Assembly: GCA_035480055.1 (NCBI GenBank)
Contig: DATIIB010000001.1
Location: 117,453-181,452, forward strand
From: Candidatus Saccharimonadales bacterium
Lineage (GTDB): Bacteria; Patescibacteriota; Saccharimonadia; Saccharimonadales; DASZAF01
Length of the DNA: 64,000 bases
Direction: 5' to 3'
A model generated the notes under the pieces. It was not told where the DNA came from. It was given only the letters and a program-made list of their open reading frames with translations, and did no database searches. Shown piece by piece: positions 5,232 to 64,000 of the stretch. Position 1 is the stretch's first letter. Every line of letters begins with the position of its first letter. Both the position numbers and the translations under genes were made by a program.

Positions 5232-5234
5232 CCC

Positions 5235-45359: not shown

Positions 45360-45610
45360 TTATTCACAATTATAGCAACCGGACTGTTATGTAGACCTAT
45401 CGCTTTCTTTGTGTCATATTGTAGCAATTTTTCCACAATATACAAGAGGTTATCCACAGCTTTACAGAGGTGAGTTTTTGCTGTGTATAACTTCTCTTCT
45501 CCATGCCCAGTAGCTGTGAGGCAAAATACCGAACAAAAGATGGTTGTGGAAAACTTACTTACTCCAGTATCATTAAGGGTAGTAACTAAGTGTGTGAGGG
45601 TAGTAACGAG
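45360..45610. promoter_or_regulatory. DnaA-box cluster upstream of dnaA (candidate oriC part 1 / dnaA and rpmH promoter region)
   Basis: Perfect TTATCCACA at ~45450-45458, TTTTCCACA at ~45429-45437, TGTGGAAAA (reverse complement) at ~45546-45554, TGTGTATAA at ~45482-45490. Extended -10 (TGcTATAAT) for rpmH at ~45369-45377 on the minus strand. Confidence 0.55.
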
Positions 45611-45613
45611 CGA

Positions 45614-48689: not shown

Positions 48690-48699
48690 AATAGCTGCA

Positions 48700-49770
48700 A
48701 TGGCTATTCATTCGATTCGTCTTCAGCATTTTCGCTCGTATACAGACGCTACTTTTGCGCTTGATCCAGGAGTTAACATTGTGGTTGGCCCGAATGGGCG
48801 GGGTAAAACGAATCTGCTTGAAGCTTTATACGTCCTTTGTCGTGGCAAATCATTTCGGGTTGCCGACAGTGAATTACTCCAACACGGTACTGACTGGTTT
48901 CGCGTGGATGGCCAAGTGGATGGCCAGCCACGCATCCTGACGCTTAAGAAAGTGGACGCTAAGTTCGAAAAGCGACTCCAGGTCGCAGGCGCAACTAAAA
49001 CGCGTCTCAGCGCTCGTGAGCAGCTGAGAGTGGTACTCTTTGAGCCGCGCGACATGCAGCTGCTGACTGGATCACCCGAACGTCGCCGTGAATACCTCGA
49101 CGCTATTTTGGAGCAACTTGAAGTTGGCTATGCGCGAACGCTTAGCCACTACCGTCGAGCACTCACCCAGCGCAATGCCCTGCTTAAGCAAGCTCACGGC
49201 GTGCCGGCTGATCATATGTTTGTTTGGAATGTCCGACTCAGCGAACTTGGCGCGCAGGTCGTCATGCGCCGCCGCGAAATCATTGCTGAGCTCGATGCTC
49301 AAGCTACCACCACCTATAACCACATTAGCGGCACCAAGGCGTCGGTCCGGATTCGCTATGAAGATCAACACCCTGATGCCGCCCCCGAACAATTGGCTTC
49401 GGTGCTGCTGCATGGGTTGGAGAAAAAATACGCCCAAGACAGCCAACGTGGCTACACGAGTATTGGTCCGCATCGTGATGACCTGGTGATTACGCTTAAC
49501 GAGGCGCCGGCCAGCACTTCTGCTTCGCGTGGGGAGACGCGGAGCTTGGTGGTGATGCTCAAGCTGCTTGAGGCGCGTTTGCTGGACGCGCATTACGAAG
49601 ATCGGCCGCTGATGCTGCTTGATGATGTCTTTGGCGAGCTGGACGCCTCACGCCGCCAAGCACTTGCCCACTATTTGGTGAATTACCAAACGGTGATCAC
49701 AACGACTGATGCCGACATGATCACCGAAGGTCTTGCTCACCCTGGCCACGTGATTACTATTGAGCGTTGA
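48700..49770 (+). CDS. recF: DNA replication and repair protein RecF
   Basis: Walker A GPNGRGKTNLLEA at N-terminus. SMC-like signature. 356 aa. Confidence 0.9.
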   Translation: MAIHSIRLQHFRSYTDATFALDPGVNIVVGPNGRGKTNLLEALYVLCRGKSFRVADSELLQHGTDWFRVDGQVDGQPRILTLKKVDAKFEKRLQVAGATKTRLSAREQLRVVLFEPRDMQLLTGSPERRREYLDAILEQLEVGYARTLSHYRRALTQRNALLKQAHGVPADHMFVWNVRLSELGAQVVMRRREIIAELDAQATTTYNHISGTKASVRIRYEDQHPDAAPEQLASVLLHGLEKKYAQDSQRGYTSIGPHRDDLVITLNEAPASTSASRGETRSLVVMLKLLEARLLDAHYEDRPLMLLDDVFGELDASRRQALAHYLVNYQTVITTTDADMITEGLAHPGHVITIER

Positions 49771-50416
49771 GATCTGAGATGACGTCGCGAGGAATCTCGG
49801 GATGTTGCGTGGCACTGAGGACGATCTCGGGTGGTGTGGTAGCTACCTTCCATTCGCCATTGTCCTTGTGCAGAATGACGCGCAGGGTGTCGCTTGAGGC
49901 GGCATCTGAGCCAATGTAGTCGAGTTTGGTGCCATACCACTCCCCTGTTTTGTAGAACCAGCCGTCTTCGATGGTATAGAGGCTGCTGATTTGCGGGAAG
50001 GCTTTGGTGAGTGCGGCAACAATTGCTGTTTTTTCGGTTGACACAAGCGACTGCAATTTGGCGTCGGTGTAGGGTGGATCAACATCCACAGTTACAGATT
50101 TGTTATCCACGCCAAAGGATACGCGGTTTGACGCATAGTCCTTGGTTGCTTTGGAAATTGCCAAGTAGCTTCCTTTGGCGAGTTTTAACGTACTTCCATT
50201 TTGCGTAATGGTTGCCGTAGGTTTGACGTTTTGGTCAAGGCCATGCTCGGTATCCACGTCGCCGGCGGGAAAGACGTCGACAGTAACACCATTATGTATA
50301 TTGAAGGTGACGGTTTGTTGCGACACCTGTTTCATTTTAAAAGTCAGTAACATGGCGACAATTATCACAACGACGCCAAGGCCGATTAAGATAATAAGTC
50401 TGCGATCTATCTTCAT
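49757..50416 (-). CDS. membrane-anchored hypothetical protein (last gene of T4SS-like operon)
   Basis: N-terminal TM (LIILIGLGVVVIIVAMLL), beta-rich ectodomain. 14-nt convergent overlap with recF. Confidence 0.45.
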   Translation of the reverse strand: MKIDRRLIILIGLGVVVIIVAMLLTFKMKQVSQQTVTFNIHNGVTVDVFPAGDVDTEHGLDQNVKPTATITQNGSTLKLAKGSYLAISKATKDYASNRVSFGVDNKSVTVDVDPPYTDAKLQSLVSTEKTAIVAALTKAFPQISSLYTIEDGWFYKTGEWYGTKLDYIGSDAASSDTLRVILHKDNGEWKVATTPPEIVLSATQHPEIPRDVISDLNAQ

Positions 50417-50417
50417 C

Positions 50418-51068
50418 TTAGTGCGCCTCGCTTGCTAATGGGTTTTTAAAGTCCAGGAATTGGATATACATGTCGGATGGGTCGTAGCCCCAGAGTTTAA
50501 TCTGATCCACTGCGCCTTTGCGAATATCGGGACGCACGGCGTTCACCTGAATGGCTATACCATTTTTGGAATCGGTGGAAGTGGCGTAGTTGATTTCAAA
50601 ATCTGCTGGCGTCAGCTCGTCTGTGCCATCGAATGGGAACGGTAATTGGCTGACGATTGGGTTTTTGTCTTGAAAGGCTTGCCCTTCGGCTTCGGCTCTC
50701 GCGCCACCAATGGCTTCACGCTGGGTTTGAAGCTTTTGATCGCGACTGACGGCATCCTTGACCGCTTGCGATTGCGGTGTAGGTAAGAGGTAGACGCTGG
50801 CTTTGTTATCGCCAACGGTGATGGTGGAGCTGTCGTCGGAGTACCCGTCGGCGCTAGCCTTAAAGGTGTGTTTCCCTTTACTCACATATACCGAACCGCT
50901 GTGGCTTGTTTTGCCATCGATAGTTACTTTGGCACTGCTCGGTGAGACCTGGATAGCTACTTCCGTCCTGCCAGCTCGCTGCGTGAGTAACGAGATGCCG
51001 TACACCGCAAAGACCGCGAGGATGATGCCTGCACCGATGATCACTTGTTTGATTCTACTATTCTGCAT
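50418..51068 (-). CDS. membrane-anchored hypothetical protein (PEGA-like beta domain)
   Basis: N-terminal TM. VYVSKGKHTFKASADGYSDDSSTITVGDNKASVYLLP resembles a PEGA/Ig-like beta-sandwich. Confidence 0.45.
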   Translation of the reverse strand: MQNSRIKQVIIGAGIILAVFAVYGISLLTQRAGRTEVAIQVSPSSAKVTIDGKTSHSGSVYVSKGKHTFKASADGYSDDSSTITVGDNKASVYLLPTPQSQAVKDAVSRDQKLQTQREAIGGARAEAEGQAFQDKNPIVSQLPFPFDGTDELTPADFEINYATSTDSKNGIAIQVNAVRPDIRKGAVDQIKLWGYDPSDMYIQFLDFKNPLASEAH

Positions 51069-51082
51069 ATGATCCTCTCTCC

Positions 51083-53803
51083 TTATTTACCTGTCGGGTG
51101 ATACCAATGGAAGCTGCCAAGGGGGTTTTCCACGCCGGCCATTGGGGTTCTCCAGGAGGCGCCGCTGGTACTGTATGAGGATGAGGCGACTTTGGTCTGG
51201 AAGTTTGGCTGCGTGCCAACCCACATGTAGGTGTGACTGAGGCTATCTTCGATGGCAATGTCACCTGGTTTTAGTTCTGCAGTGCTGGCGATGTGGCCAT
51301 CGTGATGTTTACCCAGTAGCATGTATTTGTCTGGATGACTCCTGAGATACGGTTCTTGGCCACCCCTGACATTGCCGTTATTGCCATATTTGGGATCAGC
51401 ACCGCTATCTTGCATCACTCGGGTGACGAAGCCTCCACAGTCCACACCGGCGGTTGGGGTGGCGGTTGTTCCACCGCCTACGTATTTACCAGCTTTTACG
51501 GCAGCCCTGACTGCGGCGAGATAGGCGGGCTTGTACTCCGCTGTGGAGTGGTTTCCATACGGTGGGTTGTGGTGTGTGGGCCATGCGTAATCAAGTGCTT
51601 TGCCAACTGCACCGGTTCCATTACCGCCTGCGCAGTCGGCCGTGGTTGCAGCGCCGGTGTTGCCATTATTGGCAGCCGTGGCTTGCGAGGCCGAAACCGG
51701 CAAAGCTTTTTCGATACCATTGGCGATACCCTTGGCGTACTTGGCCTCGTTAAAGGTGCCACCTCTGGCGCCAACTTCGTTGTAGACCCAAGGAACGTTA
51801 CTAAAGAGCTGGACGATCGACATGTTACCTACAGAAGGTAATCCGCGGCTTGTAGGAAACTGCAGGAAGTGCCGGACCGCGGGGCGACCCTCTGCTTTGG
51901 TACGCTCGTCCTTTATTGCTTTGGCGTATCCTTCGCTTTTGTTCACGAGCTGTTGTGCGAGCGGATTCTGGTCAAAGTATTTGGTGTGACTGCCGGTGGT
52001 TCGGTGCGTACGATCAGTGCCGCCTATAGTATCGGCCTTCATGGTCTGAGGAATGACCCACGCTTGACTGCTCCAAGTTTGACTGTCGTCATAGTGCATG
52101 CTCACTGCTAAGTCGGCGTGAGCATTATTAGCAACTTGGGCTCGTTCGATCAAACCAACATTCTGGCTTTCGCTGGCGGCGGTGGGGTTCTCGCCACCCT
52201 TGGTCATAATGACGTGATAGCCAGCCTGTTTGAGCTGCTTAAAGACATCCATAGCGGTGAGCCACATGGCATGTTCCTCACCCGGAGCACCACCGGAATC
52301 TTGGGCCGAAATGCCATCCACGGTTTCTACTTTTGGATTGCTGGTGGTGACATGGCCTGGGTCCAGAACGATGGTAATACCGTTGCTGCCTGCACAGCTA
52401 CAGCTGCCGATATCGCCCTGGCCGGCGGTACTACTCGTTCCAGTTGCGGCAGAGACCGGTGCGCCACCCATCTTGGGGTTGTGTAGTACTTGCACGGCGT
52501 TATCCATGCGAGCGCCTACCAATGCGCCTCCTGATCGTTCGAAGGTCGCTTCCCATTCCTTGGCAACATATCGGGCTTGTTCTTCGGGAGTGCCTGAAGG
52601 TAGTTTGGTGATTGTAGGCAGCGTCTTCCACACAACTTGCGGTCCTTTGGTAATTTCCCACCACAGATAATCCCACTGTCCTTCGAGGGTGTTGTATTTG
52701 GTCCCTTCCCGTTTTTTAAGCGCACTGAGGCGACCGCCGAGCCACTGGGCAATACCATAGGCGCCACTTCCCTGTCCGTTGAATTCGGTAGGATTGAATT
52801 TGGCATTTTCGGAGTGCATGCTGCCGATAATACCTGAGGCAATGATTTTGGCATTGGCTTCGCTTTGCCCCATGGCTATTAATTGTTTGACAAAGAAGTT
52901 GAAGGTTCGGATTTCGTTGTCGCCTCCAGGTATTGAGGTCAGATCGCCCAGGCTTCCACCGCCGGTTTGGTCGGTTGGCGGACAACAAGCGCTGTTATCC
53001 GGTGTGGTGTCGGTGCTGCCATCGAGCTTGGTAAGTGGTGTGCTATCCGGAACTGGAGTGTAGGTAACGATGTCGAGGTTCGACTTAAAGTCCAGCAGCT
53101 TGGCAGTTTCCCACCAGAGGTCAATGCCGCGCTTTACGGTAATTTGCGTGCCAGGATGCGCTGGGTCATCACCGGTCACGTCGGCACCGCCGCCGCCGAT
53201 GTCGCGCTTTTCAGCAATGACGGTCTTGCCTTTGTAGGAAATCGAAAGTTTGGCATGTGGTGGCAAGCCACCCAGTGATTTCCCCATGTCCAGCTCGGCA
53301 AACGAAGCGTACTTGGCGGCGTCAGCTGGTGCAGGATGACCATTAAGGGAGGTTCCGAGTGATTTGCCGTCGGTTCCCAGACCGTTGTCGTCGACACCGG
53401 TATGTTGGTCTTTGTTGCTCGATACCCATGCGCCATTCACAAAGCTTCCGCCGTAGTCGCTGGCGCCAGTAGCCGTGCCGGTGGTAGTAGTTGTTGCACT
53501 GCCGGTTGCAGGAGTGGTAGTGCCACCAAGCGTGTCGGCCGTACCGTCGCCGCCACAGCCTTCAGCGAAGAATGCGCCATCGTTCCGGCGAAGATCGTCC
53601 TGGCTTGGTGGCGCGGTGGGTGTGGTGGCGCTTTGAGCAAACACCACTGCCCCAGCCTGCGTAAAGCTGAAGACCATCACTAGCATCACGAGGGATGCTC
53701 GGGAAAGAATCCCTCCCCATTTCTGTAACCGACTCGTGATGCGTTCCATTGTGCGTTCCCCTTCCCTATTCAACTTTTTTTGTTGCCGTATTGCGTGTCT
53801 CAT
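51083..53803 (-). CDS. secreted tri-domain peptidoglycan hydrolase (lysozyme-like muramidase / N-acetylmuramoyl-L-alanine amidase_3 / NlpC-P60), VirB1/CwlT-like
   Basis: Signal/TM, Thr-rich linker. Lysozyme-like MHSENAKFNP...SGAYGIAQWLGGR (catalytic Glu, GxxQW). Amidase_3 region IVLDPGHV...LAVSMHYDD...FNEAKYAKGIANGI. C-terminal NlpC/P60 with DCGGFVTRVM (Cys) and SHTYMWVG (His). Confidence 0.7.
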   Translation of the reverse strand: MRHAIRQQKKLNREGERTMERITSRLQKWGGILSRASLVMLVMVFSFTQAGAVVFAQSATTPTAPPSQDDLRRNDGAFFAEGCGGDGTADTLGGTTTPATGSATTTTTGTATGASDYGGSFVNGAWVSSNKDQHTGVDDNGLGTDGKSLGTSLNGHPAPADAAKYASFAELDMGKSLGGLPPHAKLSISYKGKTVIAEKRDIGGGGADVTGDDPAHPGTQITVKRGIDLWWETAKLLDFKSNLDIVTYTPVPDSTPLTKLDGSTDTTPDNSACCPPTDQTGGGSLGDLTSIPGGDNEIRTFNFFVKQLIAMGQSEANAKIIASGIIGSMHSENAKFNPTEFNGQGSGAYGIAQWLGGRLSALKKREGTKYNTLEGQWDYLWWEITKGPQVVWKTLPTITKLPSGTPEEQARYVAKEWEATFERSGGALVGARMDNAVQVLHNPKMGGAPVSAATGTSSTAGQGDIGSCSCAGSNGITIVLDPGHVTTSNPKVETVDGISAQDSGGAPGEEHAMWLTAMDVFKQLKQAGYHVIMTKGGENPTAASESQNVGLIERAQVANNAHADLAVSMHYDDSQTWSSQAWVIPQTMKADTIGGTDRTHRTTGSHTKYFDQNPLAQQLVNKSEGYAKAIKDERTKAEGRPAVRHFLQFPTSRGLPSVGNMSIVQLFSNVPWVYNEVGARGGTFNEAKYAKGIANGIEKALPVSASQATAANNGNTGAATTADCAGGNGTGAVGKALDYAWPTHHNPPYGNHSTAEYKPAYLAAVRAAVKAGKYVGGGTTATPTAGVDCGGFVTRVMQDSGADPKYGNNGNVRGGQEPYLRSHPDKYMLLGKHHDGHIASTAELKPGDIAIEDSLSHTYMWVGTQPNFQTKVASSSYSTSGASWRTPMAGVENPLGSFHWYHPTGK

Positions 53804-53820
53804 ATACCCTCTCTCATAAC

Positions 53821-56415
53821 CTATTGCCCCGTCACCGGATCAAGCAGGTCTTGACCATCGAACATTAAGCCTCCCACTGGCGCTGTTTCGTTATCAATCA
53901 GACAGGCAACTTTATCCTTTTGGTGCTCACCAATGGCATCAAGGTTGTTGTCGTCGTTGGGACGGTTATCGGTGACAGCATCGTTATTGTGATTCCATGG
54001 GTCGTCTGTTAAGCAGGGGTCATCAAGAGGAATACCCGCGCTTGGTACGCCAAAGCGATCTTCAGGTAGCTGGTAATCCAGGTAGCTGGCATGTGCAGGC
54101 GAGAGCGCAAGCATGGCATTAGAGAATAGCTTGAAGGGATTAAGTGCGGCAATCAGCGATTGAGGTGAATCGATACCGGTAAATGGCGAGTTTAAGGCAA
54201 ATTGGGTCGCGAGCGATTGACTGTCATCTGATGAGAAAATCCTCTCTTTGAATGATTCCTCGCTGCGCGCCACTTGGTCGTTCTCGGCAGCGTCAGCGGC
54301 AATGGCTTTCGCTTCGGCTTTGCTGAGTTGACGCCCCCCTAGGGCATCAATGGCAAATTTATAGTTAGAGTAATCGTTCCCGATAAAGGCCGCATTCCAT
54401 AAAGGCCCGCCCACTGCCTCCAGTGCATTCCTAAAGAGAGGGTCAAATAAGATCTCGGAAGCCTTAATCAGGAAGGGCGTCACCACCCCTATGAGCTTTT
54501 TGCCCAAGAAGTTGACAAAGTTTTTAACTCCAGGGATCTGAAACAGCGTATTGTCGATAATCCAGCCAAGCAGTTGGTCACTGGGGTGAATTAACCAATC
54601 GTAAATAATTTGGGTAAAGAGGCCGCCGCCCAAAATTCCATCTGCCCATAGTATCCACTGATTACATTCTGGACAGGCGTCTAGGAGCTCTTTGATCGGA
54701 GGGTTTTTATCGAGTCGTTCGTTGTTGCAGGCTGCTGCACCTTTGGGAATTTGCTTGCCATCGTTGCAGGTATACGATCCTTGCTGTCCGGCTGGCGCAA
54801 ACGAGGCTGCACCAAAGGTCCGCTTGAATATTTCGCTCTTTTGAAAGCCAGAGAATTGATCCGAAATCGCCCGCGCTGCCGACGTGTCATAGTTTTTACC
54901 CACTGCCGTCGCTTCGCTGTCGGAGGAGTTAAGGATGCCCATTGCCGGAATGGCCTGTGCGACCACGAGCTCTTTGTGCATAATTTTCAGCGATTTATTA
55001 TTGGGGTCAAGCGTAATCTTTAGCAGCTCATGAAACAGCATCGAGAGCCTGGCAGCCAGGATCGCCTGACCAATAATCGGAAGATCAGAAGTTGCCAGTT
55101 GAGTGGAAAGTTTTTCCAGTGCTGTTTTAAATAGACCTTCGCTAAGGTGTTGCGCCAAAATCTTGGCGCCGGCTGCCACCAATTTATCCACCGATTCTCC
55201 CGAGACTCTCTCTAATGCTTTCTTCCATAAGGACCGCCCCTCCTCAGCTTCGTGGAGGACGTCGCCTTGCTTGGCGCAGTTGATCCGTTGCATCATGCAG
55301 TCCATTAAGAAACGGGAGCCCAGGTCGCCAAATGCCGGCTCGATCAGCCTGGTTTTGATAATTGCTTTCATCGCGTCCTTCAGTGCTAACGCCTTCGCCA
55401 CCGGCGAGAGTTTTTTGACCGGTCCAAACTCGGCTATCTTACAAAAGAACACACATAACGATACGCCGAATGTTTTTCTCATAAAGTTGGCAAAACGTCT
55501 ATCTTGGCCAAAGTCAATAAACCCAACCCGCTTAAACCGTTCAAGCAGATCTTTGGAGAGATCTTTCGGGAGCCCCTTTGAGAGGTCGGCCACTTCGAAC
55601 ACCCCCTTGCTGGTGGTGAAGATCAGTTTTCCCCCTTTCTCCTCAACGTTAACGCCGGTTTTGAGAAGCATTTCGGCAAACTTGCCGTCTTTGTTCCAGG
55701 CTTCCATCATCTTGCCGACTTTACTGTCAGGAAATTTTTTGCCAAGCGAGCGCTTTTTGATACAGTCAATATTTTTTAAACTGCCGCAAGCAACGATATC
55801 TTCGGCCAATGAATGCGCAAGATAGGAGTCGATATAGCGTCGCATGCGTCGATCCATGATAGCTTTATTGAGCTTTTGGGCAAGATGGCGCATCGGCTTT
55901 GAAGTGAATTTGGCTTGGAACGATGGAAATTGTTGAATCCCCAAGATGCTCCCAATAATCAGTGTGACCGCGGCGATCAAACCGCCCGCGGTTTTGCGGC
56001 GGTCGCCCAAAAAGCCTTTTAATTTATTCTTGCCACCAAACTTATTGCCCTTGCCCTTTGGCGTTGGTTTGTACAAGCTATTGCCACCGCCATCGGCATG
56101 GTCCACGCTCTCTTCGTCACCGGGAGGGATCGGCGGCGGGAGCTTTTCGGATTTGTAAAGGCTTCTGGCACCACCTTCGTCCTGAGGTTCAACGTCTTTG
56201 TAGTCTGCATCGGTGAAGTCGTCATGGGCGGTGTCTCCGCCAGCTTGCGCGGAATTTTTAGCGTCCTTGAGTACGTCATCGATGTTATCGATCGTGTCTT
56301 GAGCATTCGCGCTGACCTGATTCGGTTCGCTGGATGACGGATCGAGCGGCTGGTCTTCTTCTGGAAGGTTACTTCTGCCAGAGCGATTACGCTGTTGATA
56401 GATCTGTTGGGCCAT
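53821..56415 (-). CDS. large hypothetical T4SS-associated protein (acidic disordered N-terminus, single TM, ~650-aa ectodomain)
   Basis: 864 aa. N-terminal ~160 aa are D/E/G/K-rich. TM GGLIAAVTLIIGSILGI. Cys-containing C-terminal domain. No recognisable catalytic motifs. Confidence 0.5.
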   Translation of the reverse strand: MAQQIYQQRNRSGRSNLPEEDQPLDPSSSEPNQVSANAQDTIDNIDDVLKDAKNSAQAGGDTAHDDFTDADYKDVEPQDEGGARSLYKSEKLPPPIPPGDEESVDHADGGGNSLYKPTPKGKGNKFGGKNKLKGFLGDRRKTAGGLIAAVTLIIGSILGIQQFPSFQAKFTSKPMRHLAQKLNKAIMDRRMRRYIDSYLAHSLAEDIVACGSLKNIDCIKKRSLGKKFPDSKVGKMMEAWNKDGKFAEMLLKTGVNVEEKGGKLIFTTSKGVFEVADLSKGLPKDLSKDLLERFKRVGFIDFGQDRRFANFMRKTFGVSLCVFFCKIAEFGPVKKLSPVAKALALKDAMKAIIKTRLIEPAFGDLGSRFLMDCMMQRINCAKQGDVLHEAEEGRSLWKKALERVSGESVDKLVAAGAKILAQHLSEGLFKTALEKLSTQLATSDLPIIGQAILAARLSMLFHELLKITLDPNNKSLKIMHKELVVAQAIPAMGILNSSDSEATAVGKNYDTSAARAISDQFSGFQKSEIFKRTFGAASFAPAGQQGSYTCNDGKQIPKGAAACNNERLDKNPPIKELLDACPECNQWILWADGILGGGLFTQIIYDWLIHPSDQLLGWIIDNTLFQIPGVKNFVNFLGKKLIGVVTPFLIKASEILFDPLFRNALEAVGGPLWNAAFIGNDYSNYKFAIDALGGRQLSKAEAKAIAADAAENDQVARSEESFKERIFSSDDSQSLATQFALNSPFTGIDSPQSLIAALNPFKLFSNAMLALSPAHASYLDYQLPEDRFGVPSAGIPLDDPCLTDDPWNHNNDAVTDNRPNDDNNLDAIGEHQKDKVACLIDNETAPVGGLMFDGQDLLDPVTGQ

Positions 56416-56418
56416 TAC

Positions 56419-58362
56419 CTATGCTCCTAATGGAGGCTGGGGTGGACCCACCTCTCCGCCTAGAGTACTCGTAAGGTCTGGCGTGGGTTCAGGTCCGACC
56501 GCTCCGCCTTGAGTGGCTTGAGCGAGTTGTTCGATCTGTTTAATTTGCGCAGGGTTGGTGGTGATGAGTGATGTTTCGGTGGGACTGGCAATCACCTGCA
56601 CATGCACGTGGTTTTGTCCCGCAAACAGTAATCCCTGGCCAACTGGGAACTGAGTGAGGCGTTTTTGCTCTTCGCCAGTAAGGCGGAACACTTGCGCAAG
56701 GATGTCCACGGCCGAAGTTGATTGCTTCAGCAGCACCTGCATTGAAGCGTTGGCGACAATTGCGCGGCCCATGCGCGAACTCATAAAGTCTTCCACGTCT
56801 TGGCTGATCGTGGTCAGACCCAAGTAGTACTTACGGGCGCGTTTTGCCAGGCTAAACATAAAGTTAGCCGAATCTTCGTATTTCATCAGCTGCCATGCCT
56901 CGTCAACGATCAGCATGCGCTTGGTTTGGTCTGATTTGGTCTTGTTCCAGATGTAATTTAAGATGATGTACATGGCGACTGGGCGCAGCTCGTCCTCGAG
57001 GTCACGAATGTTAAAGACCACCATTTTGTTACTAATCTCTACGTTGGACTGCTGACTAAAGATGCCAGCAAATGTTCCCGTGGTGTACTTGCGCAATCGC
57101 TGTGCCAGCTGTGGTCCAGTACCTGCCATGTGCAGCAAGGTGTCGTACAGATCGGCAATCGTTGGCGGCGTGGTGGTGTGGGTTAACGGATCGTTGGTAA
57201 TGCCAGCTTTGGCATACGTGTCGATTAACGCCTGGTCCAGATCGGCTTCTTCCACTGGATTCAGCACTGGCCCGGCTGCGTATCCGGCAGCTACCGCACT
57301 TGCCCCACCCATCATCAGGCGTAACAGTCCATGGAGCGTAATTAAGTTGGAGCGAAGGGCGTTGTCTGCCTCTTCACTATCCAGAACCTGCGGCAGGTCA
57401 AACGGGTTGATACGCGTGGGCGAATTGAGTGAGAGCCGAATGTACGTACCACCAACCGCTTCGCAGAGGCGCTGATATTCGTTTTCTGGGTCGATGATGA
57501 TTACCTCGGTGCCCATCATCATACTGCGTAACGCTTCCAGTTTGACGGTAAACGACTTACCCGCACCAGATTTGGCAAAGACCACCATATTGGCGTTCTC
57601 AAGTGTAAAGCGATCAAAAATCACTAACCCGTTGTTGTGCATGTTGATGCCGTACAAAATGCCATTATCTTGCGTCAGGTCGGCCGAGGTGAATGGGAAG
57701 CTGGTGCTCATGGCGCCAGTGTTCATGTTGCGGCGAATTTGCAACTGGTCAAAGGCCTGCGGAATGGTTGAGTTAAAGCCCTGCTCCATTTGAACGGTCG
57801 CTGGTTTGGAATAGACCAGTTGCTGGCCGAGCACGGTTTCAACCTTGTGTTGGATAAAGTCGAGTTCTTCGAGTGCGGTGGCATACAGCGTGAAATACAA
57901 GCCAAAACGGAAGAAGCGCTCCTCACCCACCTGCAGTTTGTCGCGCAATTCCTCGGCGTCCATAATGGCGGCCTGGGTTCCTGGATCTCGAACCTTACCT
58001 TTTTCGGCATTGATCTGCAGGTCGGCTTCCAACTGACTCACCTTCTTGCGGAGGTTATCGAGCACCACGCGGCTTTCGACTGGGTAGATAAACATCGAGA
58101 TGTCGATTTCTTCGTCCATGTTGATGACCGAGCTTAACCAGCCGGTAAAGATCTGGCGGGGGTAGCCATAGACGTAGAATGTCCGGGCGTAATAGGTGCC
58201 AAGGCGGAAGTAGCCAGATTCGTACTCGAGTGAACTTGGGGCGATAAAGTCCCGAAGTTCACTAATCCCCTTCAGGAACGCTTGACTGACCTCGGCTTGC
58301 TCGCGCATGCGTTGGCGTTGGGCGATTTCCATTGGATTTGATTTTTTACTAAAAAGTCCCAT
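56419..58362 (-). CDS. virB4: type IV secretion VirB4/TrbE/ConE-family ATPase
   Basis: Walker A FAKSGAGKSFTV, Walker B RMLIVDEAWQLM (DEAW motif characteristic of VirB4/TraC). N-terminal CagE/TrbE/VirB-type domain. 647 aa. Confidence 0.85.
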   Translation of the reverse strand: MGLFSKKSNPMEIAQRQRMREQAEVSQAFLKGISELRDFIAPSSLEYESGYFRLGTYYARTFYVYGYPRQIFTGWLSSVINMDEEIDISMFIYPVESRVVLDNLRKKVSQLEADLQINAEKGKVRDPGTQAAIMDAEELRDKLQVGEERFFRFGLYFTLYATALEELDFIQHKVETVLGQQLVYSKPATVQMEQGFNSTIPQAFDQLQIRRNMNTGAMSTSFPFTSADLTQDNGILYGINMHNNGLVIFDRFTLENANMVVFAKSGAGKSFTVKLEALRSMMMGTEVIIIDPENEYQRLCEAVGGTYIRLSLNSPTRINPFDLPQVLDSEEADNALRSNLITLHGLLRLMMGGASAVAAGYAAGPVLNPVEEADLDQALIDTYAKAGITNDPLTHTTTPPTIADLYDTLLHMAGTGPQLAQRLRKYTTGTFAGIFSQQSNVEISNKMVVFNIRDLEDELRPVAMYIILNYIWNKTKSDQTKRMLIVDEAWQLMKYEDSANFMFSLAKRARKYYLGLTTISQDVEDFMSSRMGRAIVANASMQVLLKQSTSAVDILAQVFRLTGEEQKRLTQFPVGQGLLFAGQNHVHVQVIASPTETSLITTNPAQIKQIEQLAQATQGGAVGPEPTPDLTSTLGGEVGPPQPPLGA

Positions 58363-59393
58363 TATGATGCTCCTCCAGCCAGGTTGGGTTGCGGCGCTTG
58401 TCCATCACCCTTACTGACCACGATGCTGGCCATGTCTTCAAACGATCCAAGTGGCTGACGAGTGGCGGTGTCAGGGTTATAGACATCGTAATAGAGTTCG
58501 ATCAGCTCTTTGGTGTCCAGCGGTGCGGCTTGTACACCAAGCTGCAGCAAGCCGTTCATCACGCTTTGGACGCGGTTTTGAAGTTCGGTCTTGGCTTTAA
58601 CCAGCGTGTTCTCGTCAATCACCAGCCGCTGTTTTTTGCCGCCCAGGCCACCAAACAAGGTTTTGGTATCGCCAAGTACTTGTTTGGTATTTGCAACCGG
58701 GAAAAACGGAATCACAATGTAAAACTGCTTGTTCATAATGTTGGTTTGCTCCACGAGCTGCTCGATGTAGTAAATGTAGTCCTCCATCAGCATAGCCAGG
58801 AGCATGTTGTCTTGCTCGGAGCGAATCTTGTTGAGTTTCTCGAGATATGGCCGCATGTCGACCTTGCGTGAACGAATCACGATCTGGATGTCGAAGTACA
58901 GCGAGTTAAGAAAGTTCTGATAGCTAAACTCCACTGCCTCGCGCTCGGCTGCGCTCATGAGGTCAAAGTTGATCGAGCGAGCCATGACCACCGCCCGGAA
59001 GCTGCCGTCATTCATAATCACAATACCGTCACGAACCTCAGCAATCTCTAATGTATTTTGAGTACTGTTGGGGTTAGTTTTTACCGGTGGACCATTTGGA
59101 CGTGGACCTGGACCTTGCGCGGTTGCTGGCATGGCGCTGGGAGCATTTGGCAGCGGCTGTGGAGCGGGCGGTAATTGTTGATTTTGGTATGCAGGTTGTT
59201 GCGGCGCTGCAGCAGCTTGAGGCGGCTGTTGCGGAGGCTGAGGTGGTAATCCAGCCATTGGGTTTGGTAGGCCTTGAGGAGTTTGTTGCTGTTCCTGCAT
59301 GGTCCGAGTATACGGTACAGGAGCAGGAACTTGTCCTGGCTGCAAGTTCTGCTGTGGTTGATACCCTTGTTGTTGGTTAGTATCGGGATACAT
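58362..59393 (-). CDS. T4SS-associated protein with Pro/Gln-rich disordered N-terminus
   Basis: First ~115 aa are >50% P/Q/A. C-terminal ~200-aa globular domain (IVIMNDGSFRAVVMARSINFDL...). ATGA overlap with virB4. Confidence 0.5.
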   Translation of the reverse strand: MYPDTNQQQGYQPQQNLQPGQVPAPVPYTRTMQEQQQTPQGLPNPMAGLPPQPPQQPPQAAAAPQQPAYQNQQLPPAPQPLPNAPSAMPATAQGPGPRPNGPPVKTNPNSTQNTLEIAEVRDGIVIMNDGSFRAVVMARSINFDLMSAAEREAVEFSYQNFLNSLYFDIQIVIRSRKVDMRPYLEKLNKIRSEQDNMLLAMLMEDYIYYIEQLVEQTNIMNKQFYIVIPFFPVANTKQVLGDTKTLFGGLGGKKQRLVIDENTLVKAKTELQNRVQSVMNGLLQLGVQAAPLDTKELIELYYDVYNPDTATRQPLGSFEDMASIVVSKGDGQAPQPNLAGGAS

Positions 59394-59431
59394 GTAAAGT
59401 AGTCGCTCCCACCCCTCTTATCCAACGATGC

Positions 59432-60319
59432 CTAGTGGAGTGATATCACTACCTCTTCCGAAGGAAGGGTGTGGGCTTCCCGCGCAATAGCACTCACCGT
59501 CAAGTCGTTGTTGTTCGCTAACCGTATTATATCAGGTGAGACTTGGTTGGGTACAGCCGTATCTGCAGGGGCAGACGTTGTAGTTTGGTCATCATTGTCG
59601 CCTAATGGACTAATTACCTTTTGTCGCATGTCGCTTGGATATGGGTTAAAGTGCATGCCTGACGTCCCTACTCCAACGCCTGGGGCGTGCCGCAATTGTT
59701 CACTGGCCGTAGCTTGCATGCGGTGCATTCTTTCGATTGCTTCCAGACGGGCATCGCTCGCTTGTTGCTCAATCAATACCTCAAATTTCTGCGAAACCTT
59801 GGCCTGCTCGTCCATAATGTCGGTATTGATGGCGTTTTCTAACTCGCTGCGCGGTGACGCAACCTTTACCAAGCGGTCACTCGGAGTGGTTACCAAGCCT
59901 TTGGCAGCCCAGCCTCGACTGTCCATCAGGTTGGCCAGATTGCTCAGACGACTTTTAACTTCAGGCTGAGTAATATCGCGAACGCGCTTTATCTCGAGCT
60001 TTTTGGGCGCGGTAATCACTATGCGTTGGTCAAAGCCATCTTGGTCCCAAATGCGGCGGTGCGGCTTGATATAAAAACGGATCAGTGCCGCCAAGTAGAC
60101 TTCAACCGGTTGATCTTTACGGTGCACAAATCCTAGTACTCCAAAGATCACCAAGAATGGCAACATGATCGTGGCGAGTGGAATGGCGATGCGTGAGAGC
60201 ACAAAGGCCATGTAAGCAGCACCAAAGAAGAGTAAGACAAAGATGAGCTGCTTGAGCGAGAATGGCCCAAGGAGCTTGTCTTCGGCTTCGACATCTTGAG
60301 GAACTTTGTAGGTTGCCAT
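59432..60319 (-). CDS. T4SS-associated membrane protein (VirB3/ConD-like TM hairpin plus soluble C-terminal domain)
   Basis: Two adjacent TM helices near the N-terminus (LIFVLLFFGAAYMAFVL; IPLATIMLPFLVIFGVLGFV), then a ~200-aa hydrophilic domain. Confidence 0.5.
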   Translation of the reverse strand: MATYKVPQDVEAEDKLLGPFSLKQLIFVLLFFGAAYMAFVLSRIAIPLATIMLPFLVIFGVLGFVHRKDQPVEVYLAALIRFYIKPHRRIWDQDGFDQRIVITAPKKLEIKRVRDITQPEVKSRLSNLANLMDSRGWAAKGLVTTPSDRLVKVASPRSELENAINTDIMDEQAKVSQKFEVLIEQQASDARLEAIERMHRMQATASEQLRHAPGVGVGTSGMHFNPYPSDMRQKVISPLGDNDDQTTTSAPADTAVPNQVSPDIIRLANNNDLTVSAIAREAHTLPSEEVVISLH

Positions 60320-60327
60320 GCGTACTC

Positions 60328-63219
60328 CTAGGCGGCCCGTGGGACGTGACCGGTTGCAACGTTCTGATGAGCAGCTTCGGCGCGCTTGTTGACAGTATTG
60401 ATAATCGCCTGAGCCTTAACCTGATCACCTCCAAGCTGGGCTGTAAGATTGTCCAATTTTAGGAAGCCATCTAATGCATCGGCACGACCGCCCGCCAAGT
60501 GTCCCTTGGCCTTCGCTTCGACTACGAGGTCAAGCAAACGCTGCGTGCCTGCATCCTCGAAGCCTTTAACTGTCTCGGTGTGCTGCGTGCCTTGAGCATC
60601 GGAATAGGTGATTTGTTGATCTACCAATTGACGTGGAGCCGTGCCTACTACGTTACCATTTGCATCTTTCACCTGTCGTTCCTTAAGCTGGTCAGCAATA
60701 CGTGCCAGTGTCGGCTTCATGTCACTGTTGCTAACTTTAGCCAGGTCGTCCAGCTTCGCAATCTCACCACCGCTGTGACTGTACTGTCCATTGCCACGCG
60801 CTTGAAGCCCCCAAGCCATGGCTGTACCGCCTGCCTGAGCCGATGCGACAGGATCTCCAGTTTGCTCGAGCGTTTTGCGGTAGTAACCTTTTTCCATAGA
60901 ACCATCCGCATTGATGCCACCTGCGAAATCTTGCATGAGCATGCCGTGGCCTGCTGCAAGATTACCAATCGCTTCAAGCGAACTCGCGTTAGTGGGATTA
61001 AAGCCCTGTGATTGCAACGCGCTCGCTGTTGCTTGAACCTCGCCAGGACTGTAGGAAATTCCTGCCGCGGCGAGCTTCTGCTCGGCATCTTGTACATTCA
61101 TACCTGCCGAAGCGAGTGCTTGTAGATGCTGTGCATTGTACTTACCTAAGCGCTTAGTCTCATCCTCAACCTGGTAACTTCGGGCTGCAGCCATTGCACC
61201 GGCTTTGTCAGCGCTCCCGACAGCTGTGCTCCAAGAGTCGCTTGCTTGTCCAAGAGCTGCGCCCGCTCCTTGATCACCTCTAACTCTACCTCGAGCGAGT
61301 CGTCCCGCGGCCACTCCTGCGCCTTTAGCTGCACTAGCAGCACCACCAGCGCGGGTGCCAAGTCGGTTGATCTTACGCTTTGTCCGGTTATAGCGAGCAC
61401 CAACGCCTGTACCTTCTTGCATCATACTCAGAGAGTTCCCGATGCGGCGTCTATTAGCCTCATTCTTCTTGAGCTGGTGTTGCAAAGAAGGTGCGGTCAT
61501 CTTGCGGCGTTCGCCCATGGCGTTCGAGATTTTGTCGCCAACACCACCACTCAGTTTGCCATGCATTGCTCCGGCTAACGCGTTTGGAATTCGGCCAGTA
61601 AAGCGGATAATCTGGATAATCATAAAGTACGGTGCAAAGAAGCAGATGATCGCAATAAAGAAGTTAAACAGTTGCGACACACCGTTGTTATCGGCAAAAA
61701 GATGAATACTCGGGATAGCCGCAAAGCTTCCTAGCGCCTGTCCACCGTGAGCGCCAATTCCCGAAAAGAATGTGTGCAGATGTTCCATGATATGTATTGT
61801 ACCAGCCTTGCCGCTGACCGTACCAGTAACGATTGCCAGCAACGCACCAATGGCAATGACAGCCTGAAAGATTGGATAAAATAGAATCATCGAAGTCAGC
61901 AGTTCGCGCCATTTATCAAAGTATTTGGTGGTTCCCGGCAACACCCAAAGTGCAATCGCAATTGGCGCAAACACCGCACACAGAATCAGAATCCCCTGTC
62001 GCAAGATGATAAAGGCCAGCCCCACCAGCAGCGCAACGAGCAATGAGATAAATATTGGCGCCAAAAGGTACACGATGTATAACCCAATCTGCGGAATCTT
62101 AAACAAAACCCACACCGCTGGGATAATACTTCCCAGAATACCCGCCTTTAGCACCGCACTCGTGGCGTTATCGGGCACCACAATCTTGGCCGCTTGCGAA
62201 TCTTTAAACGGAAACAGCACAATGTCATGCACTCCCCCGCCAACGATGTTCCCAATCTCAATTGCAAATGTCACGATATACCAAGAGAGATTTATCAGAA
62301 TGAAAGCGATCACAATTCGCGGCAAAAGTTTTTTAACCGTGTAGGCGTCCATCAGGTTTGAGCCGGAAATAGATTGGCCAATAATCATAGCCAGGAAAGC
62401 CAGCACAAGCAGGATATCGGCAATTCGTGAAACAAACACCCATGACCCGTGCACCTTGTTGTAGGTGTCAGAGTCAAGCCCGCCAATGCCCGCATCGCCA
62501 CTCGCTGCTGGTGCAAACAAGCTGAAGTCTAACCGGGCTAACGCAAATCCGTAAATTCCGTTAATCGCCTCGTTAAAGACATTGAGCGCTGGGCAAAATA
62601 CCCAGCCCAAAAAGCCTGAGTTATCTTCGCATACTTCTTCGTCAGTGTTTGAGGCGGTATCGTTACCCGGACTCGTTGGATTAGTCGCCGCGTCGACAGC
62701 TTTTCCGGCGATGCCGTTAAACTTAGGATCCACATTCCCCTGCAAGCACGAAGGAGTGAGCATGCCATTTGGCAATCCGAGCGAGCCAATCGTTGGCCCC
62801 TTAGAGCCACCGACGTACTGGAGGCGATAATATTGGACAACATTGGTGGTAAAGTCGGCCTTCACGAAGTCTAAAGGACAACTAAATCCGTTTACCTGTT
62901 GAGTCTTGTCCCCTAGAAAGTAGGGAGAGCCGCTTAGGTTTACATTGCTCACTCCCGTAAAGAGTGTGCTTCCATCCAGGCCTGTCCCGGTTGCGGTAAG
63001 AGAGGTAAGGTCGTTTGCTGGGTGGGTATAGGTGGCGTTATCGTAAGGAGTTGCGGCATGGCTTGGGAGTGCCGAGGTCAAGCTTGTTGCCACAGCCAAA
63101 ATCATTGCAAGAAAATATACGGGGCGAAGACGAGCCACCCTTTTTATCTTCTTACCCACAGCAACAATACTCATTTGTCCTCCATTATAGTCGAGTTGCC
63201 AGCTGTGTGCCAAGGGCAT
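60328..63219 (-). CDS. VirB6/TrbL/ConG-like polytopic T4SS channel protein with large N-terminal ectodomain and ~400-aa C-terminal hydrophilic extension
   Basis: 963 aa. Signal/TM, ~230-aa extracytoplasmic domain, 6-7 TM core (residues ~250-560) typical of VirB6, then a Gly/Ala-rich hydrophilic tail. Confidence 0.65.
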   Translation of the reverse strand: MPLAHSWQLDYNGGQMSIVAVGKKIKRVARLRPVYFLAMILAVATSLTSALPSHAATPYDNATYTHPANDLTSLTATGTGLDGSTLFTGVSNVNLSGSPYFLGDKTQQVNGFSCPLDFVKADFTTNVVQYYRLQYVGGSKGPTIGSLGLPNGMLTPSCLQGNVDPKFNGIAGKAVDAATNPTSPGNDTASNTDEEVCEDNSGFLGWVFCPALNVFNEAINGIYGFALARLDFSLFAPAASGDAGIGGLDSDTYNKVHGSWVFVSRIADILLVLAFLAMIIGQSISGSNLMDAYTVKKLLPRIVIAFILINLSWYIVTFAIEIGNIVGGGVHDIVLFPFKDSQAAKIVVPDNATSAVLKAGILGSIIPAVWVLFKIPQIGLYIVYLLAPIFISLLVALLVGLAFIILRQGILILCAVFAPIAIALWVLPGTTKYFDKWRELLTSMILFYPIFQAVIAIGALLAIVTGTVSGKAGTIHIMEHLHTFFSGIGAHGGQALGSFAAIPSIHLFADNNGVSQLFNFFIAIICFFAPYFMIIQIIRFTGRIPNALAGAMHGKLSGGVGDKISNAMGERRKMTAPSLQHQLKKNEANRRRIGNSLSMMQEGTGVGARYNRTKRKINRLGTRAGGAASAAKGAGVAAGRLARGRVRGDQGAGAALGQASDSWSTAVGSADKAGAMAAARSYQVEDETKRLGKYNAQHLQALASAGMNVQDAEQKLAAAGISYSPGEVQATASALQSQGFNPTNASSLEAIGNLAAGHGMLMQDFAGGINADGSMEKGYYRKTLEQTGDPVASAQAGGTAMAWGLQARGNGQYSHSGGEIAKLDDLAKVSNSDMKPTLARIADQLKERQVKDANGNVVGTAPRQLVDQQITYSDAQGTQHTETVKGFEDAGTQRLLDLVVEAKAKGHLAGGRADALDGFLKLDNLTAQLGGDQVKAQAIINTVNKRAEAAHQNVATGHVPRAA

Positions 63220-63246
63220 TATGGCCCAGTCTTGACTATGTGTAGT

Positions 63247-64000
63247 TTATTTCACAATGCCCATTGTTAAGGCAAGCAGGGCCCCAATTGCGACCACTGC
63301 CTGAAAGACGGGATAAAACAGAATCATCGAGGTTAATAGCTCTCGCCACTGATGAAAATACTTTTCTGTGCCCGGAAGGATCCATAATACAATGGCGACC
63401 GGCGCAAACACCGCACACAGAATCAGAATCCCCTGTCGCAAGATGATAAAGGCCATGCCAACGACCAGTGCAGTTGCCACTGTCACAAAGATGGGAAAGA
63501 GCAGATACAGAATGTACGTACCGATTTGCGGAATTTTAAACAGCAGCCACACCGCCGGCAGTAATGACCCCAGAATCCCGGCACCAACTATGTTTGAGGT
63601 GATATTATTTGGCGCCACAAACTTGGCTGCCTGACTGCCGCTAAACGGCGCCAGAATAATGTCGTGGGCTCCCCCGCCAACGATATTCCCAATCTCAATT
63701 GCAAACGTCACTAAATACCAAGAGATGTTGATCAAGACAAAGGCGATGACGATTCGCGGCAGCATTCGCTTCACGGTATAGGCGCTAAAGAGGTTGGACT
63801 GGGAGAGCGACTGCCCGATGACCATGCCAATGAATAACACGGCCAAGAGTACATCGGCGAGCCTCGACACAAACACCCACGACCCATGCACTTTGTCGTA
63901 CGAGGCTTGATCGAGTCCGCTAATCCCGGCGTCACCGCTCGCAGCTGGCGCAAACAGACTAAAGTCCATTCGGGCGAGCACGAATCCGTAGATCCCATTA
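63247..64000 (-). CDS. second VirB6-like paralog (5' part outside window); lacks the C-terminal extension
   Basis: TM core ~80% identical to the 60328-63219 product. Frame stays open upstream of the annotated GTG to the window edge (NGIYGFVLARM matches INGIYGFALARL of the paralog). Identical DNA blocks, e.g. 61961-62022 vs 63397-63458. Confidence 0.65.
   Translation of the reverse strand, partial: NGIYGFVLARMDFSLFAPAASGDAGISGLDQASYDKVHGSWVFVSRLADVLLAVLFIGMVIGQSLSQSNLFSAYTVKRMLPRIVIAFVLINISWYLVTFAIEIGNIVGGGAHDIILAPFSGSQAAKFVAPNNITSNIVGAGILGSLLPAVWLLFKIPQIGTYILYLLFPIFVTVATALVVGMAFIILRQGILILCAVFAPVAIVLWILPGTEKYFHQWRELLTSMILFYPVFQAVVAIGALLALTMGIVK

Follow-up and report, generated by a model that had tools for sequence, protein, structure and literature searches.

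The closest described relatives of the locus considered here, a chromosomal gene cluster for a type IV secretion system (T4SS) of a Candidatus Saccharimonadales bacterium, are the T4SSs of other Saccharibacteria, in which such a region was first reported by McLean et al. 2020 (PMC7427843) and which, in a 2025 FEMS review (PMC12857230), already count as an established newcomer among the members of the superfamily. In Southlakia epibionticum the genes dnaA, dnaN and recF (SEML1_0001 to SEML1_0003) are followed on the minus strand by SEML1_0004 to SEML1_0013, encoding in turn a small protein (0004), a PEGA-domain protein (0005), a protein with lysozymes and a cysteine proteinase (0006), a protein of 1113 aa with a C-terminal DD-peptidase domain (0007), VirB4 (0008), then 0009, PrgI (0010), a VirB6-like protein (0011), a non-essential NTF2-like protein (0012) and VirB6 (0013), with the pilins 0014 to 0019 and an Hsp20 protein (0020) on the plus strand (Wang 2023, PMC10633639). 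Transposon sequencing (Tn-seq) in co-culture scored all of SEML1_0004 to SEML1_0019, the PEGA-domain protein included, as essential at two outgrowth time points, with the sole exception of SEML1_0012 (PMC10633639). For the wider T4SS clade of Patescibacteria an ancestry in the mating-pair-formation class FATA (MPF-FATA) has been described, together with abundant TrsD, PrgI, VirB6 and VirB2 arrays, a near absence of relaxases, and a location near dnaA/dnaN for which possible gene-dosage regulation has been discussed (Quinonero-Coronel 2025, PMC12102498). The DNA analysed here, hereafter the window, is a 64,000-nt stretch of assembly GCA_035480055.1 (contig DATIIB010000001.1, positions 117,453 to 181,452 of the forward strand). 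We conclude that the gene cluster at window positions 49757-64000 is one more orthologous copy of this already described Saccharibacterial T4SS, and no new kind of system; that it is a Saccharimonadales chromosomal T4SS orthologous to SEML1_0004-0019 is almost beyond doubt.

The open reading frames (ORFs) of the window and their translations bear out the nine consecutive, co-oriented minus-strand genes that an initial annotation of this DNA had described, lying next to the replication-origin flank:

49757-50416, minus strand: 219-aa protein anchored in the membrane by its N-terminus; the operon ends with this gene (ORF and transmembrane prediction)
50418-51068, minus strand: 216-aa membrane-anchored PEGA-domain protein (PF08308 and transmembrane prediction)
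51083-53803, minus strand: 906-aa multi-domain cell-wall hydrolase, secreted or anchored (Pfam domains)
53821-56415, minus strand: 864-aa bitopic membrane protein of the SEML1_0007 family (topology and homologues)
56419-58362, minus strand: VirB4-family ATPase, 647 aa (NF045971, P-loop_TraG, Walker motifs)
58362-59393, minus strand: TrsD-like protein, 343 aa (NF041427, N-terminal part of NF045971, PF26593)
59432-60319, minus strand: PrgI-family protein, the VirB3 equivalent, 295 aa (PF12666 and transmembrane hairpin)
60328-63219, minus strand: VirB6-like polytopic protein, 963 aa, with 948 aa from 63174 likelier (topology, position)
63247-64000 and beyond, minus strand: 3' part of a second VirB6-like paralogue, more than 244 aa in the window, cut by the window end
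45360-49770, plus strand: replication-origin flank, with dnaA at about 45614-46972, dnaN at 47595-48689 and recF at 48700-49770

The correspondence with S. epibionticum covers the whole gene order, from the small anchored protein through PEGA protein, hydrolase, bitopic protein, VirB4, TrsD-like protein, PrgI and two VirB6-like proteins to the pilins and Hsp20, and it covers the setting also, directly after dnaA-dnaN-recF on the opposite strand, in a cluster without relaxase or coupling protein. There are differences, however, in individual parts. The second VirB6 paralogue has 451 aa here and 1088 in S. epibionticum; SEML1_0007 has a C-terminal DD-peptidase domain that is missing from the 864-aa protein; the hydrolase has Amidase_3 and a probable NlpC/P60 domain where the other has a second lysozyme-like domain and a cysteine proteinase; and there are five pilins instead of six. 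From the T4SSs of the Patescibacteria clade in general the locus shows no categorical difference, sharing with them a VirB4 related to the MPF-FATA class, TrsD, PrgI, VirB6-like proteins, a pilin array, the lack of a relaxase and a location close to dnaA and dnaN.

The pilins lie past the window end. The locus is identical (17,582 nt, 0 mismatches) to part of contig CAYZNG010000001.1 (491 kb) of GCA_964479845.1, a Candidatus Saccharimonadales metagenome-assembled genome, and 9.4 kb of this contig were used to extend the sequence past base 64000. There the locus continues into the complete 451-aa VirB6 paralogue and then into five divergent VirB2-like pilin genes (T4SS_pilin, PF18895) on the opposite strand, 0.6-2.9 kb past base 64000. 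These are followed by Hsp20, which stands after the pilin array in S. epibionticum also, by a ComF-like gene and a 215-aa gene, and, further on, by two NUDIX-type genes, two genes without a family match and two tRNA genes, the last at 5.3-6.3 kb beyond the window end and outside Hsp20 and the ComF-like gene. The VirB2-like array that characterises the Patescibacteria-clade T4SS is thus present in this locus; it is absent inside the 64-kb window and is found only beyond its end.

On the other side the cluster abuts the core replication genes, as the initial annotation had it: recF, dnaN and dnaA, whose identities agree with the Pfam families precomputed for the source contig, adjoin it, and the 3' end of recF overlaps the convergent terminal 219-aa gene by 14 nt. 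That the cluster adjoins oriC follows because clusters of DnaA boxes (45360-45553 and 47378-47534) and the minimum of the cumulative GC skew (46-48 kb of the window) lie in the dnaA-dnaN-recF flank; the window as a whole holds 30 near-consensus DnaA boxes against 12.6 expected. Within the cluster, the junctions were said to be overlapping or shorter than 5 nt throughout, and this needs correcting, since they measure -1, 1, 3, 8, 14, 17, 27 and 38 nt. Scans for promoters and terminators across the locus gave nothing above shuffled expectation; the single promoter-like site with an 11/12 match (63213-63184) falls in the start region of the 963-aa VirB6-like gene.

Two further observations concern this flank. 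The operon of ~15 kb is transcribed toward oriC, which is head-on to the fork leaving the origin, and its orientation in S. epibionticum is identical; this is opposite to the usual bias of essential genes, as the orthologues are in S. epibionticum, and the published gene-dosage idea does not account for it. The public annotation, for its part, places a 203-aa gene without a family match (window 46976-47377; L081 20787-21398) inside the 620-nt spacer between dnaA and dnaN, with three DnaA boxes beside it at 47378-47534; this gene is probably an annotation error made across the origin.

The motor of the system is a VirB4-family ATPase, an identification that the initial annotation had based on a GAGKS Walker A and a DEAW Walker B motif. 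Both motifs are present in the translation, and the identification holds when the 647-aa protein is set against VirB4 hidden Markov models (HMMs): it scores 366.9 bits with the NCBIfam profile NF045971 (CD1110 family), for which the curated cut-off is 325, and matches Pfam P-loop_TraG with E 3.6e-31. The protein is without the canonical N-terminal domain. Because its match to NF045971 spans profile positions 179-732 of 752, and positions 2-119 are matched by residues 112-228 of the 343-aa protein, VirB4 is split here into two proteins, one TrsD-like and corresponding to the N-terminal domain, the other forming the ATPase body. The 343-aa protein also matches NF041427 (TrsD; E 1.3e-6), has a precomputed PF26593 TraC-like assignment, and consists of a PQ-rich extension followed by a homologue of the VirB4 N-terminal domain, so that its earlier description as a PQ-rich protein without a recognisable domain has to be given up. 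Translation of the two genes is coupled, since they overlap in TAATG, and a GGAGG site lies upstream of the overlap. A frameshift artefact was considered as the origin of the split and rejected, since the TAATG overlap and the two-gene layout recur in relatives, L028 and S. epibionticum among them. The split is ancestral, the two-gene layout being found in all 80 of the relatives compared below and in S. epibionticum. In the public annotation the TrsD-like gene begins at an internal ATG and encodes 217 aa (L081 9348-10001), and the PQ-rich region is covered by a 92-aa ORF of the opposite strand (L081 8983-9261). The 343-aa ORF is more likely the better gene model, because the stretch matched by the HMM starts upstream of that internal ATG, and the 92-aa call is more likely spurious.

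The 295-aa protein encoded next to these matches PF12666 (PrgI) over residues 5-90 with E 3e-15, and has an N-terminal transmembrane hairpin (hydrophobic residues 16-67) followed by a hydrophilic C-terminal region; both family and topology agree with its initial description as a VirB3-like hairpin protein.

The two polytopic proteins are best described as VirB6-like. Topology prediction gives both paralogues a signal peptide, an external domain and 5-7 transmembrane segments; in the 963-aa protein the external domain has ~200 aa, the transmembrane segments number ~6-7, and a hydrophilic C-terminal domain of ~420 aa follows. The GGAGG Shine-Dalgarno sequence is better at the 948-aa start (63174) than at the 963-aa start. 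No Pfam match was obtained for the 963-aa protein itself, and TrbL is matched by the partial ninth ORF with E 0.0027 and, sub-threshold, by 4 of the 32 members of the VirB6-like family. A profile of this family matches an unannotated 753-aa protein encoded upstream of PrgI/VirB4 in a plasmid of Embleya (E 6e-8); among PDB sequences it finds chance matches only, with influenza HA2 at E ~0.02. The orthologous SEML1_0011 and SEML1_0013 were annotated as VirB6-like by fold (PMC10633639). The earlier proposal of two VirB6-like polytopic proteins is thus borne out in topology and position and falls short of a significant family match, TrbL being sub-threshold; with the Embleya match and the published folds added, these lines of evidence support the name VirB6-like for an assignment unproven by sequence alone.

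On the source contig the second paralogue is complete (451 aa; L082 8573-9928; start at ~64602 in window numbering) and is 55% identical to the first over 455 aa. The two genes are the product of a recent, lineage-specific tandem duplication. The upstream (451-aa) copy ends after ~5 transmembrane segments, without the hydrophilic C-terminal domain, and the two genes (60328-64000 and L082 8573-9928) are only ~27% identical to VirB6 of other species.

How does this locus relate to the conjugative systems of Gram-positive bacteria? With the MPF-FATA T4SSs (pGO1/pSK41 Trs, pIP501 Tra, pCF10 Prg and CTn2 CD1110-type) it shares a VirB4 that passes the CD1110 cut-off, a separate TrsD-like protein before VirB4, as in the pGO1 subclass (PMC12102498), a PrgI-family VirB3, a multi-domain wall hydrolase in place of VirB1, and the lack of VirB7, VirB9 and VirB10. 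It differs from them in having VirB2-like pilins, in its fixed chromosomal location, in the lack of a relaxase, a coupling protein or an oriT context, and in the lack of a VirB8-like match. The label of a minimal Gram-positive Con-type apparatus, which the initial annotation had applied, does not fit: VirB2-like pilins are found here and are lacking from Con systems, VirB4 is split, and neither a VirB8-like protein nor a coupling protein was detected. The gene order presumably parallels that of pIP501/pGO1 (TraC-TraD-TraE-TraF-TraG-TraH).

The VirB4 proteins of PLSDB that come nearest outside the Patescibacteria share 37-39% identity with that of the window and are encoded on an 898-kb replicon of Pontibacillus sp. 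ALD_SL1 (NZ_CP062975.1; locus L083 7477-17030) and on a plasmid of Embleya sp. NBC_00896 (NZ_CP108778.1; locus L084 7532-18375). The Pontibacillus locus comprises two pilin-like genes, one annotated as Mbov_0395 family, then genes for a 779-aa protein, a small protein, a TrsD-like protein (E 3.6e-27), VirB4 and a 1050-aa M23 peptidase, with no relaxase or coupling protein nearby. The Embleya locus runs from a pilin-like gene through a VirB6-position protein, PrgI and VirB4 to a coupling protein, a relaxase and NlpC/P60; it is conjugative in type, the coupling protein and relaxase occupying the position that the 864-aa protein and hydrolase hold in Saccharibacteria. Neither locus lies beside a replication origin, unlike that of the window, and neither contains a match to the profiles built for the families of the 864-aa protein, the hydrolase and the 216-aa and 219-aa proteins. 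The Saccharibacterial pilins, by comparison, match the pilin-like genes of both (E 1e-7 to 1e-12). Among monoderm T4SSs, then, VirB2-like pilins occur outside Patescibacteria too, as the pilin-like genes of the Pontibacillus and Embleya loci show.

The conservation of the locus was followed through the more than 570 genome loci that encode a VirB4 relative. The best 80 of these, nearly all labelled Saccharibacteria or Saccharimonadales, were compared, with VirB4 proteins 74-81% identical to that of the window, and synteny was counted among those with enough flank. TrsD is adjacent to virB4 in 80/80 loci and PrgI lies upstream of virB4 in 68/68; a VirB6-like gene is found upstream in 53/57, and 53/80 have, upstream of VirB6, a divergently oriented pilin-like array, typically of 5-7 genes. 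A convergent recF follows virB4 at 4.6-8.5 kb in 58/60 loci. Median identities to the window are 78% for VirB4, 64% for DnaA, 59% for TrsD, 50% for DnaN, 46% for RecF, 35% for PrgI, 27% for VirB6 and ~24% for the 864-aa protein; since the loci were chosen by VirB4 similarity, the VirB4 figure (78%) and its comparison with DnaA are biased upward. Identity falls from the cytoplasmic motor to the surface parts, which fits a host-facing machine.

We conclude that the locus is fixed and vertically inherited beside recF-dnaN-dnaA across the order. The initial annotation had likewise favoured a chromosomally fixed machine over an integrative and conjugative element (ICE), and the recurrence of the recF placement in 58 of 60 species-level relatives upholds this; its statement that the operon had been inserted beside oriC is misleading, the placement being ancestral to the order. 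It saw no relaxase, integrase, att site or VirD4 in the window, and the absence of mobility genes extends through the 9.4 kb that follow base 64000. Neither a relaxase nor an integrase, coupling protein or transposase was found among the ORFs of at least 200 aa in the window or the called genes of this extension, and the other 30 window ORFs of that size hold no mobility gene, encoding surface-polysaccharide synthesis, Ku, LigD, a histidine kinase, a beta-lactamase-like protein and others. VirB4 itself gives the sole VirD4-like signal, a P-loop match of 12.5 bits. The longest direct repeat flanking the two borders has 10 nt, where shuffled sequences reach 14, and on the recF side there is no room for an att site because recF overlaps the terminal gene.

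One rival reading is that of a degenerate or domesticated ICE beside recF that still moves DNA by means of an unrecognised relaxase or a distant coupling protein. It can appeal to the nearest VirB4 proteins outside the Patescibacteria, which sit on Gram-positive replicons, to the coupling protein and relaxase directly after virB4 on the Embleya plasmid, to the two tRNA genes past the window end, and to the ancient transfer from monoderms that has been inferred for the clade (PMC12102498). Against it stand the missing mobility genes, the overlap of recF with the terminal gene and flanking repeats not beyond chance, the identical placement in 58/60 species, a VirB4 more conserved than DnaA among the same genomes (with the bias noted above), and a GC content near that of the rest of the window (0.50-0.55 against 0.45-0.52). 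A current ICE is largely refuted by the mobility genes missing from the window and the 9.4 kb beyond, the lack of repeats and the fixed placement, and is rejected; the degenerate form we regard as very improbable.

The genes downstream of virB4 form a wall-facing module, made up of the bitopic 864-aa protein, the hydrolase and two small anchored proteins of PEGA type. The 906-aa protein had been described as a three-domain secreted peptidoglycan hydrolase, analogous to VirB1. Two of the domains are matched significantly, Phage_lysozyme2 with E 1.6e-16 and Amidase_3 with E 1.4e-10, and NlpC/P60 is probable: its own match is sub-threshold (E 0.048), the catalytic-type motifs DCGGFV and SHTYMW are present, and the homologues in L004 and L071 match NlpC/P60 at ~3-7e-4. 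A hydrophobic segment occupies residues 29-57, and no domain could be assigned to N-terminal residues 60-300. With a lysozyme, an Amidase_3 and a probable NlpC/P60 domain, the protein is the functional analogue of VirB1.

The adjacent 864-aa protein has a low-complexity cytoplasmic N-terminus (residues ~1-130), one transmembrane segment (~141-164) and an all-alpha ectodomain of ~700 aa. An AlphaFold2 model built with 78 homologues as alignment (predicted local distance difference test, pLDDT, 76.2; predicted template-modelling score, pTM, 0.78) makes the ectodomain nearly all helical, and the protein is thus predicted to be a bitopic membrane protein, mostly ordered, with a folded helical ectodomain. 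The initial annotation's view of it as an intrinsically disordered protein holds for the first ~130 residues only, the rest being a folded helical ectodomain. No Pfam, NCBIfam or PDB sequence match was found for it, and word-prefiltered homologue searches (8000 candidates scored) with the full-length protein, an alignment of 15 homologues or 26 trimmed ectodomains returned the query only. Exhaustive HMMER searching with the family found 214 representative homologues of 800-1586 aa, and local HMM iteration places a gene of this family directly after virB4 in 60 of 61 loci (for example L028 11943-15092; L039 11886-15113; L061 11998-17118; L073 11903-15727; L004 11930-15601). The plan is common to all members: 40-195 aa of low complexity at the N-terminus, then a single transmembrane segment and a large ectodomain, the last carrying conserved cysteines.

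It is the C-terminal end that varies. A Pfam survey of the last 400 residues of 60 species-level homologues found VanY in 14, a GDSL esterase in 5, M23 in 3, CHAP in 2 and Exo_endo_phos in 2, and single instances of each of alginate lyase, tyrosine phosphatase, GDPD, M14 and M74; the window copy carries no C-terminal enzyme domain by Pfam. A comparable variety is seen at the hydrolase position, surveyed in the relatives as the other ORFs of at least 350 aa between the 864-aa family gene and recF, where the domains were Phage_lysozyme2 (34), M23 (9), GDSL (9), Amidase_3 (7), SLT_2 (7), C39-like (5), CHAP (5), Amidase_2 (4), SLT (4), glucosaminidase (2) and GH3 (1). The module downstream of virB4 thus appears, from these domain matches, to be a conserved scaffold combined with shuffled envelope-degrading activities, a hotspot of domain shuffling across species. 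Peptidoglycan would be their substrate, and perhaps teichoic acid, lipid and exopolysaccharide too, a range which suggests that the host envelope is a target alongside the epibiont's own wall. A bolder proposal, which we offer as a tentative one, is that the 864-aa family is a T4SS-coupled polymorphic envelope-attacking protein in which a conserved bitopic helical stalk, for which there is no solved structural relative, presents interchangeable C-terminal enzymes. That the homologues carry interchangeable C-terminal envelope-degrading domains is new here, in that a non-exhaustive search of the literature did not find the pattern stated; this polymorphism and the per-gene anatomy downstream of virB4 go slightly beyond PMC12102498 and PMC7427843.

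The two small proteins at the end of the operon are simpler. The 216-aa protein has a transmembrane segment at residues 4-30 and matches PF08308 (PEGA) with 21.8 bits at a cut-off of 20.8, in keeping with the PEGA annotation of the essential SEML1_0005 (PMC10633639). The 219-aa protein has one transmembrane segment (residues 1-32) and no Pfam or NCBIfam match, and its single-sequence AlphaFold2 model (pLDDT 49.8) is too low in confidence to judge a VirB8/NTF2 fold. By local HMM iteration, homologues of the two are found in 28 and 21, respectively, of 61 related loci. Comparison of the two families by hhalign with uncontaminated alignments gives 87.5% (E 3.6e-6), and the 219-aa protein is probably a distant paralogue of its 216-aa neighbour; an earlier figure of 99.4% was discounted because the 219-aa alignment shared sequences from both HMM lists. 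Of the four proteins first said to be without recognisable domains, the 343-aa (TrsD-like) and 216-aa (PEGA) proteins therefore do have them, and the 219-aa and 864-aa proteins are indeed without a family match.

What might such a machine do? Our preferred explanation overall, which we consider probable, is that of a vertically inherited Saccharimonadales T4SS mediating contact-dependent exchange with the host. VirB4/TrsD, docked on VirB3 (PrgI) and VirB6 in the epibiont membrane, would power the extraction and polymerisation of pilins, and the VirB2-like pilins would form a short pilus or conduit. At the contact site the epibiont's own wall, and probably the host wall too, would be opened by the hydrolase together with the 864-aa family protein. 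The assembled machine would then serve contact-dependent exchange with the actinobacterial host, most likely as protein or effector export and less likely as uptake, and would not serve conjugative DNA transfer. Export, or a conduit, is a mechanism for which we judge the chances to be about even.

The main rival to export is import, in which T4SS and pilus would take up host macromolecules or nutrients, like archaeal Ced or Helicobacter ComB; the imported goods would be nucleic acids, lipids and peptides that a reduced-genome epibiont cannot make. The lack of de novo nucleotide, amino-acid and fatty-acid synthesis in Saccharibacteria (PMC10633639) gives this idea its appeal, uptake of host molecules has been speculated on (PMC12857230), and neither coupling protein nor relaxase is present in the window or the 9.4 kb beyond, where a ComF-like gene follows the pilin array and Hsp20. 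VirB4 also weakly matches models of CedB (E 7e-14) and CedD (E 8e-7); these scores, however, are far below the cut-offs and reflect generic P-loop similarity, and VirB4 matches the conjugative CD1110 family best. There is also no known import substrate. Deletion of comEC in S. epibionticum, moreover, abolishes competence and leaves viability unaffected (PMC12857230), and DNA uptake linked to ComEC is therefore unlikely as the essential role. On balance we consider import improbable, though it comes closer to export than the other alternatives do.

A purely adhesive organelle, in which VirB4 assembles a host-binding VirB2-type pilus and nothing is translocated, would account for the five sequence-divergent pilins of the array and the arrays of 5-7 common in relatives. 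Fast-evolving surface parts would suit the matching of host receptors, and pilin variety may aid adaptation to different host strains (PMC12102498). Saccharibacteria already attach by means of type IV pili, however (PMC10633639; PMC11623550), and wall-degrading enzymes together with an extended VirB6 channel-type protein exceed the needs of adhesion, so that adhesion alone is a distinctly unlikely role.

Several points weigh against contact-dependent exchange as set out above. No substrate, effector or pilus of this system is known from any Saccharibacterium, and the mechanism and the direction of transport given above are putative. Essentiality for epibiotic growth would carry over to this organism by analogy with the Tn-seq of S. 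epibionticum, a different species. No VirB8-like (NTF2-fold) component was matched among the locus proteins by Pfam or NCBIfam profiles, and there is no counterpart of the NTF2-like SEML1_0012 between the VirB6 genes, where S. epibionticum has one; the VirB6 assignment itself is without a significant sequence match to known VirB6. The scan for mobility genes covered 64 kb and 9.4 kb of a 491-kb contig, so that a distant VirD4 or relaxase is conceivable, and in many Patescibacteria VirD4 homologues do lie far from virB4 (PMC12102498).

Much of the remainder of the window is also concerned with the cell surface. The stretches 343-4390 and 15830-43110 are largely genes for surface-polysaccharide synthesis, including a Wzx-like flippase, a Wzy-type polymerase, an initiating sugar transferase, at least 9 glycosyltransferases, a Wzm/Wzt ABC exporter, GDP-mannose dehydratase, an epimerase and an FkbM methyltransferase. 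Among them are a secreted 557-aa protein with an N-terminal CHAP domain (19890-21563) and a secreted 619-aa protein with a weak fucose-lectin-like match (26173-28032), which by their domain matches are possible additional host-envelope-acting proteins outside the T4SS locus. A gene for Ku (296 aa) and, next to it, one for a full-length LigD of 820 aa that combines phosphoesterase, ligase and primase-polymerase domains lie at 4341-7697 and form a complete pair for non-homologous end joining in a reduced-genome Saccharibacterium, and a class-A beta-lactamase-like protein (Beta-lactamase2, 4e-34; 11892-13426) is convergent with a pentapeptide-repeat protein.

Finally, the modest value of this further copy lies in a cleaner gene anatomy, with a split VirB4, corrected starts and a topology and predicted fold for the 864-aa protein, in the shuffling of enzyme domains downstream of virB4, and in the finding that the nearest relatives outside the Patescibacteria also have pilin-like genes. 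If the proposal of a stalk with interchangeable enzymes is true, the C-terminal enzymes of the 864-aa family may match host wall chemistry, and the family would, together with the shuffled neighbouring hydrolase, be a determinant of host range; in that case the window's own copy would be a stalk without an enzyme, dependent on the adjacent four-region hydrolase. The Saccharibacterial system is the first T4SS reported to be essential for its own carrier bacterium, and it probably underlies the exploitation of hosts by these ultrasmall epibionts.

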